IMG/VR virus record: IMGVR_UViG_2565956721_000006
Length of the DNA: 6,702 bases
Strand: one strand, 5' to 3'
DNA from: a virus
Lineage: Duplodnaviria > Heunggongvirae > Uroviricota > Caudoviricetes
Numbering within the stretch: position 1 is the stretch's first letter; every line of letters begins with the position of its first letter. This document shows positions 1 through 6,702 of the stretch, piece by piece. Made by a program: the position numbers and the translations under genes. The notes beneath the pieces are model-generated. The model was not told the origin of the DNA. It saw nothing but the letters and a program-made list of their open reading frames with translations, and did no database searches.

Positions 1-162
1 ATGCTGGCGAACCCAGACACGCAGAGTCTCCGGCGTACAGCCAATCTTTGGAGCAATGGAACAAATTGTCGCCCATTGTGAGTCATATTCGCTCTGACTT
101 TCCAGAACCATACGGACTGCCCGTTGACGGACTTCGGGGGAAAAACGAGTATTTTTAGTCAT
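1..162 (-). CDS. IS3-family transposase OrfA, N-terminal 54 codons (partial; continues past window start)
   Basis: Minus-strand translation from ATG (162-160): [54 protein letters not shown], recognised as the helix-turn-helix N-terminus of IS3-family OrfA. Below the length cut-off of the ORF track because it is cut by the window edge. Confidence 0.8.
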
Positions 163-216
163 CCTGTTTACCTCTTTCTCAGGAAGTTTAGTCTCCAGGA
201 TTCCCGGGGCGGTTCA
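1..216 (-). mobile_element. Partial IS3-family insertion sequence (IS629/IS1203-like), one terminal end at 216; rest lies beyond window start
   Basis: Minus strand from 216 reads TGAACCGCCCCGGGAATCCTGGAGACTAAACTTCCTGAGAAAGAGGTAAACAGG then ATG at 162. The 5'-TG terminus and leader before the transposase ATG match my recollection of the IS629/IS1203 end. Exact IS name needs an ISfinder search. Confidence 0.7.
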
Positions 217-540
217 AGTTAACGAATCAAACAAATCTTGCACATATTTTTCTTCTTTAGATTTGCGCTTCTGAGCAGCGAATACCTCAATTCTTTCAGT
301 CACAGCGTGATAAGCGGAATTAACAACGCCGTTAAGCACATAGCTAACGCAAAACAACAGGATGTAATACATCCAGTAATGAGGAAGGATTTCTGGATTA
401 TGCAGGTTTATCCATTCTTTTACGCTTACCGGCATAACAATAATCAATATGATCAGGATGATTAGCATATGAATCAACTGTTTAAGTGTCATTCCTTGCA
501 GGAAAAAATGCATTAGTTCCTGCCACCATGAGTTGTTCAT
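214..540 (-). CDS. sieB: Superinfection exclusion protein SieB, C-terminally truncated at the IS junction (108 aa)
   Basis: ORF-track protein MNNSWWQELMHFFLQGMTLKQLIHMLIILI... matches the lambda SieB N-terminus as I recall it; hydrophobic membrane segments present. No in-frame upstream start before stop at 582-580. Stop codon TGA (216-214) is the first three bases of the IS terminal repeat. Lambda SieB is substantially longer (about 190 aa, from memory). Confidence 0.75.
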   Translation of the reverse strand: MNNSWWQELMHFFLQGMTLKQLIHMLIILIILIIVMPVSVKEWINLHNPEILPHYWMYYILLFCVSYVLNGVVNSAYHAVTERIEVFAAQKRKSKEEKYVQDLFDSLT

Positions 541-683
541 CGGCGTTTCTCTTTTGCTCTCTGTAGGGGTGAATAGAGTTTATCCGATTTCTCGTTGTAG
601 GGGTACACGAGAACCACCGAGCCTGATGTGGTTAAAAGACAGGCACAATCTTTACTACCGCAATCCACTATTTAAGGTGATAT
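541..683. promoter_or_regulatory. Divergent intergenic region between sieB and orf28/ral; expected site of the sieB promoter; contains a 9-bp direct repeat TGTAGGGGT (562-570 and 596-604)
   Basis: Position between divergently oriented sieB and orf28/ral. Repeat seen directly in sequence. No confident -35/-10 assignment could be made by eye. Confidence 0.3.
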
Positions 684-770
684 ATGGAAGAAGAATTTGA
701 AGAGTTCGAAGAGCATCCTCAAGATGTGATGGAACAATACCAGGACTATCCGTATGACTACGACTATTGA
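684..770 (+). CDS. lambda orf28-like acidic 28-aa peptide, overlaps ral start
   Basis: ATG 684 to TGA 768-770 translates MEEEFEEFEEHPQDVMEQYQDYPYDYDY. Size and position (87 bp, overlapping ral start by 17 nt) match my recollection of the lambda orf28 annotation. Below ORF-track cut-off. Confidence 0.5.
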   Translation: MEEEFEEFEEHPQDVMEQYQDYPYDYDY

Positions 771-954
771 TACAAATCAATGGTGTGGACAATTCAAACG
801 ATGCAATGGATGCAAGCTGCAATCGGAATGCATGGTTAAGCCTGAAGAAATGTTTCCTGTAATGGAAGATGGGAAATATGTCGATAAATGGGCAATACGA
901 ACGACGGCAATGATTGCCAGAGAACTTGGTAAACAGAACAACAAAGCTGCCTGA
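754..954 (+). CDS. ral: Ral, restriction alleviation protein (modulates type I restriction-modification)
   Basis: 66-aa product MTTTIDTNQWCGQFKRCNGCKLQSECMVKPEEMFPVMEDGKYVDKWAIRTTAMIARELGKQNNKAA, essentially the lambda Ral sequence as I recall it; conserved position upstream of ea10. Confidence 0.9.
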   Translation: MTTTIDTNQWCGQFKRCNGCKLQSECMVKPEEMFPVMEDGKYVDKWAIRTTAMIARELGKQNNKAA

Positions 955-1088
955 TAGTGGCCTTTATTTTTGGCATAAATAACAGAATAAACACTGCACT
1001 GTGTATTCATTCCAACGAGTGAATACACGGAGCAATGTCGCTCGTAACTAAACAGGAGCCGACTTGTTCTGATTATTGGAAATCTTCT

Positions 1089-1116
1089 TTGCCCTCCAGT
1101 GTGAGGGCGATTTTTT
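1089..1116 (+). terminator. Putative intrinsic terminator between ral and ea10 (tL2-like position in the pL operon)
   Basis: Stem TTGCCCTC (1089-1096), loop CAGTGT, stem GAGGGCGA (1103-1110) with one G-U pair, immediately followed by TTTTTT (1111-1116), on the transcribed strand. Confidence 0.45.
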
Positions 1117-1136
1117 ATCTATGAGGATATGAATAG

Positions 1137-1505
1137 ATGTCAAACATCAAAAAATACATCATTGATTACGACTGGAAAGCATCAATAGAAATTGAAATTG
1201 ACCATGACGTAATGACAGAGGAAAAACTTCACCAGATTAATAATTTCTGGTCAGACTCTGAATACCGACTCAATAAACACGGCTCTGTATTAAATGCTGT
1301 ATTAATCATGCTGGCGCAACATGCTCTGCTTATAGCAATTTCAAGCGACTTAAATGCATATGGTGTTGTGTGTGAGTTCGACTGGAATGATGGAAATGGT
1401 CAGGAAGGATGGCCTCCAATGGATGGTAGTGAAGGAATAAGAATTACCGATATCGATACATCAGGAATATTTGATTCAGATGATATGACTATCAAGGCCG
1501 CCTGA
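1137..1505 (+). CDS. ea10: Ea10 early protein (lambda ea10)
   Basis: 122-aa ORF at the lambda ea10 position between ral and cIII; length identical to lambda Ea10 as I recall; acidic C-terminal half. Confidence 0.8.
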   Translation: MSNIKKYIIDYDWKASIEIEIDHDVMTEEKLHQINNFWSDSEYRLNKHGSVLNAVLIMLAQHALLIAISSDLNAYGVVCEFDWNDGNGQEGWPPMDGSEGIRITDIDTSGIFDSDDMTIKAA

Positions 1506-1530
1506 GCGCGGCGTTACCGCATACCAATTA

Positions 1531-1551
1531 CGCTTCACTCGAGGCGTTTTT
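1531..1551 (+). terminator. Putative intrinsic terminator between ea10 and cIII (tL3-like position)
   Basis: CGCTTC (1531-1536), loop ACTC, GAGGCG (1541-1546) with one G-U pair, followed by TTTTT (1547-1551); strong Shine-Dalgarno AAGGAG for cIII lies just downstream. Confidence 0.4.
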
Positions 1552-1577
1552 CGTTATGTATAAATAAGGAGCACACC

Positions 1578-1742
1578 ATGCAATATGCCATTGCAGGGTG
1601 GCCTGTTGCTGGCTGCCCTTCCGAATCTTTACTTGAACGAATCACCCGTAAATTACGTGACGGATGGAAACGCCTTATCGACATACTTAATCAGCCAGGA
1701 GTCCCAAAAAATGGATCAAACAATTATGGCTATCCAGACTAA
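1578..1742 (+). CDS. cIII: CIII, inhibitor of FtsH-mediated CII degradation
   Basis: ATG 1578 to TAA 1740-1742 translates [54 protein letters not shown] (54 aa), matching lambda CIII from memory. Preceded by AAGGAG. Missing from the ORF track because it is under the length cut-off. Confidence 0.9.
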   Translation: MQYAIAGWPVAGCPSESLLERITRKLRDGWKRLIDILNQPGVPKNGSNNYGYPD

Positions 1743-1854
1743 ATTCACTATCGCCACTTTTATTGGCGATGAAAAGATGTTTCGTGAGGCCGTCGACGCT
1801 TATAAAAAATGGATATTAATACTGAAACTGAGATCAAGCAAAAGCATTCACTAA
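1711..1854 (+). CDS. kil: Kil, host cell-division inhibitor
   Basis: Internal ATG at 1711 of the 1585..1854 track ORF gives [47 protein letters not shown] (47 aa), matching lambda Kil; overlaps the cIII stop and the gam upstream start as in lambda. Confidence 0.85.
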
Positions 1855-1929
1855 CCCCCTTTCCTGTTTTCCTAATCAGCCTGGCATTTCGCGGGCGATA
1901 TTTTCACAGCCATTTTCAGGAGTTCAGCC

Positions 1930-2226
1930 ATGAACGCTTATTACATTCAGGATCGTCTTGAGGCTCAGAGCTGGGCGCGTCACTACCAGCAGATCGCCCG
2001 TGAAGAGAAAGAGGCAGAACTGGCAGACGACATGGAAAAAGGCCTGCCCCAGCACCTGTTTGAATCGCTATGCATCGATCATTTACAACGCCACGGGGCC
2101 AGCAAAAAAGCCATTACCCGTGCGTTTGATGACGATGTTGAGTTTCAGGAGCGCATGGCAGAACACATCCGGTACATAGTTGAAACCATTGCTCACCATC
2201 AGGCTGATATTGATTCAGAGGTATAA
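1930..2226 (+). CDS. gam: Gam (GamS form), RecBCD nuclease inhibitor
   Basis: 98-aa product [44 protein letters not shown]... matches lambda GamS with a few substitutions. The upstream GamL start (ATG 1809) is in a different frame here (see findings). Confidence 0.9.
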
Positions 2227-2231
2227 AACGG

Positions 2232-3017
2232 ATGAGTACAGCACTCGCAACGCTGGCAGGGAAGCTGGCTGAACGTGTCGGCATGGATTCTGTCGACCCA
2301 CAGGAACTGATCACCACTCTTCGCCAGACGGCATTTAAAGGTGATGCCAGCGATGCGCAGTTCATCGCATTGTTGATCGTCGCCAACCAGTACGGCCTTA
2401 ATCCGTGGACGAAAGAAATTTACGCCTTCCCTGATAAGCAGAACGGCATTGTTCCGGTGGTGGGCGTTGATGGCTGGTCCCGCATCATCAATGAAAACCA
2501 GCAGTTTGATGGTATGGACTTTGAGCAGGACAATGAATCATGTACATGCCGGATTTACCGCAAAGACCGCAATCATCCGATCTGCGTTACCGAGTGGATG
2601 GATGAATGCCGCCGCGAACCATTCAAAACCCGCGAAGGCAGAGAAATCACGGGGCCGTGGCAGTCGCATCCCAAACGGATGTTACGGCATAAAGCCATGA
2701 TTCAGTGTGCCCGTCTGGCCTTCGGATTTGCTGGTATCTATGACAAGGATGAAGCCGAGCGCATTGTCGAAAATACCGCATACACTGCAGAACGTCAGCC
2801 GGAACGCGACATCACTCCGGTTAACGATGAAACCATGCAGGAGATTAACACTCTGCTGATTGCCCTGGACAAAACATGGGATGACGACTTATTGCCGCTC
2901 TGTTCCCAGATATTTCGCCGCGACATTCGCGCATCGTCAGAACTGACACAGGCCGAAGCAGTGAAAGCTCTTGGATTCCTGAAACAGAAAGCCACTGAGC
3001 AGAAGGTGGCAGCATGA
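2232..3017 (+). CDS. bet: Bet (Red-beta) single-strand annealing recombinase
   Basis: 261-aa product [66 protein letters not shown]... recognised as lambda Bet; ATGA start/stop overlap with exo at 3014-3017. Confidence 0.95.
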
Positions 3018-3694
3018 CACCGGACATTATCCTGCAGCGTACCGGGATCGACGTGAGAGCTGTCGAACAGGGGGATGATGCATGGCACAAATTACGGCTC
3101 GGCGTCATCACCGCTTCAGAAGTTCACAACGTGATAGCAAAGCCCCGCTCAGGAAAGAAGTGGCCTGACATGAAAATGTCCTACTTCCACACCCTGCTGG
3201 CTGAGGTTTGCACCGGTGTGGCTCCGGAAGTTAATGCTAAGGCGCTGGCGTGGGGAAAACAGTACGAGAACGACGCCAGAACCCTGTTTGAATTCACTTC
3301 CGGCGTGAATGTTACTGAATCCCCGATCATCTATCGCGACGAAAGTATGCGCACCGCCTGCTCTCCCGATGGTTTATGCAGTGACGGCAATGGCCTTGAG
3401 CTGAAATGCCCGTTTACCTCCCGGGATTTCATGAAGTTCCGGCTCGGTGGTTTCGAGGCCATAAAGTCGGCTTACATGGCCCAGGTGCAGTACAGCATGT
3501 GGGTGACACGAAAAGATGCCTGGTACTTTGCCAACTATGACCCACGAATGAAGCGTGAAGGCCTGCATTATGTCGTGGTTGAGCGGGATGAAAAGTACAT
3601 GGCGAGTTTTGACGAGATGGTGCCGGAGTTCATCGAAAAAATGGACGAAGCACTGGCTGAAATTGGTTTTGTATTTGGAGAGCAATGGCGATGA
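3014..3694 (+). CDS. exo: Exo (Red-alpha) 5'-3' dsDNA exonuclease
   Basis: 226-aa product [65 protein letters not shown]... recognised as lambda Exo; the same length as lambda Exo. Confidence 0.95.
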
Positions 3695-3873
3695 CCCATC
3701 CTCACGATAATATCCGGGTAGGCGCGATCACTTTCGTCTACTCCGTTACAAAGCGAGGCTGGGTATTTCACGGTCTTTCTGTTATCCGAAATCCGCTGAA
3801 AGCCCAGCGGCTGGCTGAGGAGATAAATAATAAACGGGGGGCGGTATGCACAAAGCATCTCCTGTTGAGTTAA
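3691..3873 (+). CDS. lambda orf60a-like hypothetical protein
   Basis: ATG 3691 overlaps the exo stop (ATGA); 60-aa product [60 protein letters not shown]. The track lists an earlier in-frame ATG at 3685. Position and size match the lambda orf60a annotation. Confidence 0.75.
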
Positions 3874-4037: not shown

Positions 4038-4047
4038 CAACCACTGA

Positions 4048-4230
4048 ATGCATTTTTCTGGCAGCGGGCTTCATATTCTGTGTGCTTATGCTTGCCGACA
4101 TGGGGCTTGTTCAGTGACACCTCAGCAAGAAAACGCCCTTCGCAGCATTGCCCGTCAGGCTAATTCTGAAATCAAAAAAGTCAGACAGCAGTTTCCAAAA
4201 ACGTCAATGACATTTGCCGTAGCGTACTGA
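4048..4230 (+). CDS. Hypothetical 60-aa ORF in the orf61-equivalent region; reading frame uncertain
   Basis: Track ORF MHFSGSGLHILCAYACRHGACSV...; an ATG at 4018 (expected lambda orf61 start) runs into TGA at 4045-4047 after 9 codons. A competing frame (4034..4117) encodes the hydrophobic peptide MTTTECIFLAAGFIFCVLMLADMGLVQ. Coding assignment here is ambiguous. Confidence 0.3.
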   Translation: MHFSGSGLHILCAYACRHGACSVTPQQENALRSIARQANSEIKKVRQQFPKTSMTFAVAY

Positions 4231-4423
4231 AGAAGCACCGCGAAACGGTAACGCTGAAGGGATTCACACCGACTCATTTAAGCCTGGCAATCGGCATGTT
4301 AAACGGCGTCTTTAAGGAACGATGAACATGAAAAGCAAAATTATCAGGGAGCTACAGGCTCCTTTTTTATTGTTCGCATTCACCCTCAAGCGTATTAACC
4401 AACAGTTCAGGGATTAATGAAAG

Positions 4424-5333: not shown

Positions 5334-5570
5334 ATGTCTCGACTAATCACTTTACAGGACTGGGCTAAAGAAGAATTTGGGGACTTAGCACCAAGTGAGC
5401 GAGTTCTGAAAAAATACGCGCAAGGGAAAATGATGGCCCCACCCGCTATAAAAGTTGGTCGCTACTGGATGATTGACCGAAATTCCCGTTTTGTAGGAAC
5501 GCTTGCAGAACCGCAACTCCCAATAAACGCAAACCCAAAACTCCAAAGGATAATCGCTGATGGCTGCTAG
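5334..5570 (+). CDS. xis: Excisionase (Xis), lambda-type
   Basis: 78-aa product MSRLITLQDWAKEEF...PPAIKVGRYWMI resembles lambda Xis (MYLTLQEW...PPPVKDGREYLF). Strong SD AAGAGGAGGA at 5316-5325. 3' end overlaps the int start by 11 nt, as xis-int pairs typically do. Confidence 0.8.
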   Translation: MSRLITLQDWAKEEFGDLAPSERVLKKYAQGKMMAPPAIKVGRYWMIDRNSRFVGTLAEPQLPINANPKLQRIIADGC

Positions 5571-6702
5571 ACCCCGATCTCACAAAATCTCTATACCCAA
5601 TTTATATTGCAAATTAGATAAGCGAACCGGAAAGGTATATTGGCAATACAAACATCCACTATCCGGTCGTTTTCATAGCTTAGGAACTGATGAGAATGAA
5701 GCAAAACAAGTTGCTACTGAAGCAAATACCATTATTGCTGAACAACGTACCAGACAAATATTAAGCGTCAATGAGCGTCTGGAAAGAATGAAAGGCAGGC
5801 GCTCAGACATTACGGTGACAGAATGGCTTGATAAATATATTTCTATCCAAGAGGACAGGCTGCAACATAATGAACTAAGACCCAACTCCTATCGGCAAAA
5901 AGGCAAACCCATTCGTCTTTTCCGTGAGCATTGTGGAATGCAACACCTCAAGGATATTACCGCACTTGATATTGCCGAAATAATTGATGCTGTAAAGGCT
6001 GAAGGTCATAACAGGATGGCGCAAGTCGTGAGAATGGTGTTGATCGACGTCTTCAAAGAAGCACAACACGCAGGACATGTTCCGCCAGGATTTAACCCAG
6101 CGCAGGCAACAAAACAACCGCGAAATCGAGTAAACCGCCAAAGATTGTCACTGCCCGAATGGCAGGCAATATTTGACAGCGTAAGCAGACGGCAGCCCTA
6201 TTTAAAATGCGGCATGCTACTTGCTCTTGTTACTGGACAACGTTTAGGCGATATCTGCAATTTGAAATTCTCTGATATATGGGACGACATGTTGCACATT
6301 ACTCAGGAAAAAACCGGTTCAAAACTTGCTATTCCGCTTAACCTGAAATGCGATGCTCTGAATATTACCCTTCGTGAAGTTATATCTCAGTGCAGGGATG
6401 CTGTTGTTAGTAAATATCTGGTCCATTACCGTCACACTACCTCTCAAGCAAACAGAGGAGACCAGGTTTCTGCGAATACTCTGACAACGGCTTTTAAAAA
6501 GGCCCGGGAAAAATGTGGCATAAAATGGGAGCAAGGAACTGCGCCCACATTTCATGAGCAGCGATCTCTGTCAGAACGGTTATATCGGGAACAGGGTCTG
6601 GATACGCAAAAGTTGTTAGGCCATAAATCCAGAAAAATGACCGACCGATACAATGATGATCGTGGTAAAGACTGGATTATCGTAGATATCAAAACAGCAT
6701 AG
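5560..6702 (+). CDS. int: Tyrosine site-specific integrase (lambda Int family, non-lambda allele)
   Basis: 380-aa product; C-terminal catalytic motifs LALVTGQRLGDI, FHEQRSLSERLY, LLGHKS, RYNDDRG align with lambda Int R212, H308/R311, H333 and Y342 blocks. N-terminal half differs from lambda Int. Window ends at its stop codon. Confidence 0.95.
   Translation: MAARPRSHKISIPNLYCKLDKRTGKVYWQYKHPLSGRFHSLGTDENEAKQVATEANTIIAEQRTRQILSVNERLERMKGRRSDITVTEWLDKYISIQEDRLQHNELRPNSYRQKGKPIRLFREHCGMQHLKDITALDIAEIIDAVKAEGHNRMAQVVRMVLIDVFKEAQHAGHVPPGFNPAQATKQPRNRVNRQRLSLPEWQAIFDSVSRRQPYLKCGMLLALVTGQRLGDICNLKFSDIWDDMLHITQEKTGSKLAIPLNLKCDALNITLREVISQCRDAVVSKYLVHYRHTTSQANRGDQVSANTLTTAFKKAREKCGIKWEQGTAPTFHEQRSLSERLYREQGLDTQKLLGHKSRKMTDRYNDDRGKDWIIVDIKTA

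Follow-up and report, generated by a model that had tools for sequence, protein, structure and literature searches.

A single IS629 copy most likely (probability of roughly 0.8) bridges codon 108 of sieB and the DNA upstream of cII in a lambdoid Escherichia coli prophage, replacing a 3397-bp immunity segment. The window, by which we mean the whole stretch of viral DNA that was analyzed (6,702 nucleotides), is the early-left arm of this prophage from the truncated sieB to int, written in the direction of pL transcription. It is the reverse complement of positions 3839..10540 of L004 (scaffold KI538782.1 of assembly GCA_000495055.1). The truncation of sieB by IS629, together with the probable loss of the immunity segment, is ordinary IS-driven prophage decay, and all of its components are fully known.

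IS629 ends sieB after codon 108

Megablast searches with positions 1..700 against 5,426 complete E. coli genomes and a phage collection revealed a switch of identity at 216/217. Positions 217..700 were 100% identical to intact sieB loci, all matches breaking off at 217, and for positions 1..216 many IS629 copies gave 100% identity, in alignments that finished at 216 beside unrelated flanks. Across the breakpoint, the intact gene reads ...GAT TCG TTA ACT CTT GGA GAA..., versus ...GAT TCG TTA ACT TGA ACC GCC... in the window. The sense codons of the minus-strand ORF (217..540) correspond to codons 1 to 108 of a 193-codon P22-type sieB, as judged from 100% DNA identity to E. coli ATCC 11775 and many other genomes, the Pfam SieB model, and an alignment with P22 SieB. 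The TGA stop codon of the truncated gene (214..216, minus strand) coincides with the first three bases of IS629, where the intact gene has CTT (Leu109); it is entirely IS629 sequence because the left terminal repeat of the element occupies 216..192. A stop codon of this origin is unremarkable, since both IS629 ends read TGAACC inward and about one-third of insertions into coding sequences end the ORF at the IS tip.

The preliminary description of this DNA had proposed that the sieB ORF (540..214, minus strand; 108 aa) ends at the terminal TGA of an IS3-family element with a terminus at 216, and the switch of identity at 216/217 bears this out. The element is specifically IS629, with 100% identity over 1..216, and comparison with the intact gene agrees with the proposed shortening of SieB (from 193 to 108 aa). 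The orfA start was also correctly placed on the same strand, its ATG lying at 162..160, 54 nt after the first IS629 base. The annotation of the 108-aa ORF should read sieB pseudogene fragment.

A protein look-up with the exact 108-aa product returned two places, L004 (GCA_000495055.1) and L005 (GCA_037643905.1). We rejected the latter (10286..10325) as a second occurrence: the contig ends in ...TTAACTC, and the final C is the base of the intact sieB. The partial gene call in L005 has the same 108 residues by coincidence, because the contig edge falls one base past codon 108. As a practical caution, an exact protein match to a truncated ORF may stem from a contig edge and not from a shared mutation.

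The element in the window is the left end of IS629

The left 216 bp of IS629, a member of the IS3 family, occupy 1..216 on the minus strand, and the edge of the window falls within the element, at position 1. In addition to its identity to IS629 copies in general, this sequence is an exact substring of a complete 1310-bp copy (L009 507..1816), whose positions 1601..1816 equal window positions 1..216. A repeat search on the complete copy identified 25-nt terminal inverted repeats (507-531 and 1792-1816; 92% complementarity), which places the left repeat, TGAACCGCCCCGGGAATCCTGGAGA, at 192..216 on the minus strand of the window. This repeat reads TGAACCGCC... and begins with 5'-TG, and the boundary of the element lies at its tip, as in the IS3 family.

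Codons 1 to 54 of orfA (1..162, minus strand) are present before the gene is cut by the window edge. They matched HTH_Tnp_1 (PF01527; E = 2.6e-7) and are identical to the N terminus of the 108-aa OrfA of the complete copy. That copy encodes both OrfA (HTH_Tnp_1) and OrfB (rve; NF033516, 314.6 bits), and its annotation includes a programmed (-1) frameshift joining orfA and orfB with an AL1L pseudoknot. The OrfA/OrfB organization with its frameshift was thus read from the complete copy, the window itself carrying OrfA residues 1-54 and the copy at this locus having Ns in its central part. The RefSeq PGAP name of the 100%-identical copies is "IS3-like element IS629 family transposase."

IS629 is known to generate target-site duplications of 3 to 4 bp, and matching flanking duplications were found at 21 of the 47 IS629 copies in O157 genomes, where 62% of the copies lie within prophages or prophage-like elements (PMC3271280). 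The element has also been tied to gene inactivation and genomic deletions (PMC9943667).

As a separate observation, IS629 copies in unrelated strains (L003 1..2216 and L008 1..1816) are annotated as incomplete, with the C terminus missing, and a gene for a group II intron reverse transcriptase/maturase (ltrA) lies beyond the annotated end of each fragment. This arrangement suggests an intron that targets IS629.

IS629 probably joins sieB to the DNA upstream of cII

In L004, the IS629 left end extends for 218 bp up to a run of 965 N, beyond which lie 205 bp of the IS629 right end (100% identity, same orientation). The right end finishes with ...CCCGGGGCGGTTCA and adjoins GCCATATGCG... (GCCATATGCGTTTCCACGC...), after which come cII, O, and P; the cII-side junction is the IS629 right end plus ACTCTTGGAGAAAG, located 60 bp upstream of cII. 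The gap estimate puts the flanks 1388 bp apart (218 + 965 + 205), compared with 1310 bp for one IS629 copy. Both junctions, sieB/IS629 and IS629/cII, fall within contiguous sequence, whereas the two IS ends are connected through a scaffold gap. On the stretch from the cro side to cII, a hairpin with a perfect 6-bp stem and a 4-nt loop, ATGCGTTTCCACGCAT, begins 3 bp from the IS629 right end (L004 11715..11730, equal to L007 1257..1272) and might be tR1-like.

Both flanks matched the E. coli ATCC 11775 prophage at 100% identity (2984/2984 bp for positions 217..3200 of the window and 1274/1274 bp for the cII/O flank), and a flank-identical prophage was also found in Nissle 1917, APEC O1, and S88. 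In ATCC 11775, 3397 bp separate the flanks (L007 1275..4671; NZ_CP033092.2 2869275..2872671). This segment comprises 81 bp downstream of cro; cro itself (HTH_3); a LexA/S24-type cI-like repressor gene (HTH_3 and Peptidase_S24); two accessory genes, DUF6978-like and DUF1828 (annotation and Pfam); a 60-codon ORF; the N antiterminator gene (PF25694, N_peptide; E = 1.5e-32); and the last 258 bp of sieB (85 codons), the features without a domain match being taken from the annotation. According to gene order and analogy with lambda and P22, from which we took the positions of pL, pR, and nutL, pR is expected between the repressor gene and cro, with pL and nutL upstream of N, both intergenic regions being parts of the missing segment.

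The preliminary description had anticipated that a leftward extension would recover the other IS end, a target-site duplication, the sieB 3' fragment, and N. The other IS629 end was found; the remaining items were not. No sieB 3' fragment, N, repressor gene, or cro was detected between the flanks in L004, where the link across the IS is the gap of 965 N. The immunity region (the repressor gene, cro, N, and the pL/pR stretch) is hence absent between sieB and cII, a result that hinges on the scaffold gap. The two junctions (TTAACT on the sieB side and GCCATA on the cII side) share no 3- to 4-bp direct repeat. The missing duplication counts against a simple insertion and leaves the identification of IS629 intact.

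GCA_000495055.1 was the only public assembly found to contain the junction pair of sieB codon 108 and the cII-upstream DNA. No sequence identical to either junction was detected elsewhere in complete E. coli genomes, metagenome contigs, viral contigs, or species-representative genomes.

Alternative explanations

Two other arrangements place the immunity segment back in the genome. IS629 may simply have inserted into sieB, with the rest of sieB, N, and pL beyond it, in which case the join to cII would have been made in error, to an IS629 copy belonging to another, related prophage in this genome. The IS is bridged by 965 N, IS629 is multicopy, related prophage segments occur more than once in many genomes, and scaffolding could in principle have left out an inner contig or picked the wrong IS629 copy. 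However, the contig that was joined carries the cII-O-P arm in collinear order and in the correct orientation, with 100% identity to ATCC 11775, where the two flanks are 3.4 kb apart; the gap estimate is within 78 bp of one IS629 copy; and the scaffold holds no contig running from the sieB 3' end to N. We therefore regard a simple insertion as unlikely. Alternatively, the immunity segment may still be flanked by a direct repeat of IS629, with one copy in sieB and the other upstream of cII, in an arrangement resembling a composite transposon, which the scaffolder collapsed. The outer junctions would then look identical to those seen, such an arrangement is the natural precursor of a deletion, and relatives show recurrent IS629 insertions between cro and cII and beside sieB. 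Two IS629 copies plus the 3397-bp segment would nevertheless occupy about 6 kb, compared with the 1388-bp gap estimate; the scaffold has no inner contig; and the hypothetical inner junctions were not found in complete E. coli genomes. These points make the two-copy arrangement quite unlikely as well.

The sieB/IS629 junction itself could be questioned on two grounds. IS elements are typical places of misassembly, which raises the prospect of a chimera, but the junction is inside a contig that continues for 216 to 218 bp into the IS, the break coincides precisely with the IS terminus, as real transposition predicts, and two samples were reported with this contig; a chimera is highly improbable. 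The notion that the 108-aa product represents a naturally short form of SieB, its match to an IS end being incidental, has nothing in its favor besides the ORF itself. The DNA agrees completely (100%) with 193-codon genes through the last sense codon, this identity stops exactly at the IS629 tip, and 216 bp of 100%-identical IS629 follow; the Pfam SieB model is half covered; and the annotated SieB proteins of P22, lambda, and ATCC 11775 are 184 to 193 aa long. We rejected this reading as practically inconceivable. The replacement of the immunity segment by one IS629 copy is the reading adopted below.

The truncated gene belongs to a P22-type sieB-esc-sas module

By its sequence, the truncated gene is a P22-type sieB. 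The 108-aa ORF matched Pfam SieB (PF14163; E = 1.5e-16; 60.7 bits, with a cutoff of 26) over model positions 2-78 of 147, versus 2-118 for the intact homologue, and the alignment of the 108 retained residues yielded 90% identity to P22 SieB and 22% identity to lambda SieB. The preliminary description had taken lambda as its yardstick, a poor choice for the breakpoint given the 22% identity. The gene of the intact relatives has 193 codons and is annotated as "super-infection exclusion protein B."

In the P22 annotation (P22-pbi; AF527608), sieB is 579 nt long and esc is its in-frame 3'-terminal 507 nt, beginning 72 nt into sieB, i.e., at codon 25. The corresponding Met25 (466..468, minus strand), assigned by homology to P22 esc and invariant in the alignment, is retained. 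Because Met25 is kept and the break comes after codon 108, SieB and Esc both lose their last 85 residues. The earlier suggestion that the C-terminal part of SieB was lost thus held; its corollary that the internal Esc start went with it did not, Met25 being present at 468..466. The sole strongly hydrophobic segment, at approximately residues 22-40, is also kept in the 108-aa product.

A predicted homologue of the P22 sas antisense RNA (536..661, plus strand; approximately 97% identity to the 127-nt P22 sas listed in Table 2 of PMC13397905) is retained and overlaps the sieB start codon and leader. An approximate counterpart of P22 PsieB lies at 577..607 (minus strand), a placement by homology in which the AF527608 annotation (L002 1862..1892) was transferred by alignment. 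This counterpart was missed by a consensus promoter scan, whose hits in positions 1..1000 were no more numerous than in shuffled controls, and an Rfam scan of the window returned no family matching sas. At the sequence level, the locus accordingly has the codon-25 Esc start and the predicted antisense sas over the sieB start of a P22-type module; a full-length SieB (about 192 aa) is no longer encoded, 108 of the 193 codons being left.

A Tn10 insertion 254 bp into P22 sieB was described as disrupting both ORFs (PMC12888859); the break in the present sieB is 324 bp in. The truncated SieB and Esc are probably inactive.

Gene content of the remainder of the early-left arm

Beyond sieB, the window contains ral (754..954), an ea10-like DUF2528 gene (1137..1505), cIII (1578..1742), kil, gam (1930..2226), bet (2232..3017), exo (3014..3694), several small ORFs, xis (5334..5570), and int (5560..6702), in this order. 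The only match in the Rfam scan of the window was the cIII thermoregulator (Lambda_thermo; 1565..1623, plus strand; 88.5 bits), located immediately upstream of and extending into cIII.

Two further features of this arm were noted. Between the DUF1382 gene and the zf-DksA/TraR gene, a stretch of approximately 390 bp (4038..4423) has no called gene in the source assembly, and the only ORF in it is one of 60 aa (4048..4230). In addition, the prophage int adjoins icd, encoding isocitrate dehydrogenase (L004 2475..4981), which suggests integration at icd.

Proposed origin and consequences of the replacement

IS629 would have landed first at one of the two sites, either in sieB or on the cII side. 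The intervening DNA would then have been lost, either through an IS-promoted adjacent deletion or through homologous recombination between directly repeated IS629 copies. Either route suffices to account for the missing target-site duplication.

With the immunity segment gone, the early-left genes (ral, cIII, kil, gam, bet, exo, xis, and int) and the early-right genes (cII, O, P, and Q) would each have lost their promoters and antiterminator. Because the repressor, cro, N, pL, and pR would all be missing, the early operons would not be expressed, and the prophage should be non-inducible, non-immune, unable to excise, and thus locked in the chromosome. Loss of the repressor would be tolerable or harmless for the host, since both early promoters would have been lost along with it.

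The preliminary description placed the IS in the path of pL transcription between N and ral and considered that it could be polar on the early-left operon. The position is correct for intact relatives; the polar simple insertion is at odds with the scaffold, which joins IS629 to the cII side. N-modified transcription overrides IS polarity even in the case of a simple insertion, as known from classical work on lambda N and gal IS mutations. Polarity on the pL operon is probably moot here, as pL and N have apparently been lost.

Both PsieB and the promoter of the IS629 transposase face cII-O-P-Q across the IS and could drive low, unregulated expression of the replication genes and the late regulator. 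It is very unlikely that the prophage is not silent owing to such read-through, or that a membrane-anchored stub, SieB(1-108) or Esc(25-108), keeps some exclusion or anti-exclusion activity; were either the case, the locus would be a domesticated remnant and not junk. The prophage is best treated as a defective remnant without immunity or inducibility, and not as an intact lambdoid phage in which an IS interrupts a single accessory gene. Beyond annotation, the significance of the case is small: it is one further documented instance of IS629 pruning E. coli prophages.

Related IS629 events and comparison with known systems

At least two other independent IS629-bounded deletions were detected in the same prophage family. 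In E. coli 90-3040 (L010 2366..3675), an identical cro precedes the IS629 left end, which is placed 15 bp away from the cII-side breakpoint described here; a tail-fiber assembly pseudogene occupies the far side of the element, and there is no target-site duplication. The cro-cII stretch may be a recurrent IS629 target. A boxA-like motif, CGCTCTTTG, was noticed by eye in the same stretch. In E. coli NCTC11151 (L011 1071..2380), the IS629 right end is 34 bp upstream of the ATG of an intact sieB, inside the sas/PsieB region; a TonB-family gene lies beyond IS629, target-site duplication is again absent, and the early-left arm appears to have been lost. Similar matches with an IS629 right end near sieB were obtained for FY26 and Nissle 1917 CP007799 at the level of the search, NCTC11151 being the one of the three that was inspected.

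All of these events place IS629 at an edge of the immunity region. Those of the 90-3040 and NCTC11151 type have unrelated DNA beyond the element and retain the immunity region while one prophage arm is lost, whereas the event described here loses the immunity region and keeps both arms. The IS629/IS1203 copies of O157 prophages are the same element (100% identity over 216 + 205 bp) and share the association with deletions and prophages, but the flanks at the present locus match the prophage of ATCC 11775, Nissle 1917, APEC O1, and S88 and not an O157 prophage. Compared with lambda, the present sieB belongs to the same Pfam family and has the same position between N and ral, convergent with N and antisense to the pL transcript, and yet the proteins are only 22% identical. 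Another close counterpart is the sieB-esc-sas module of P22, which the locus resembles in protein sequence (90% identity over the 108 residues), Met25, the sas region, and the PsieB region, and from which it differs in lacking the C-terminal 85 residues of SieB and Esc.
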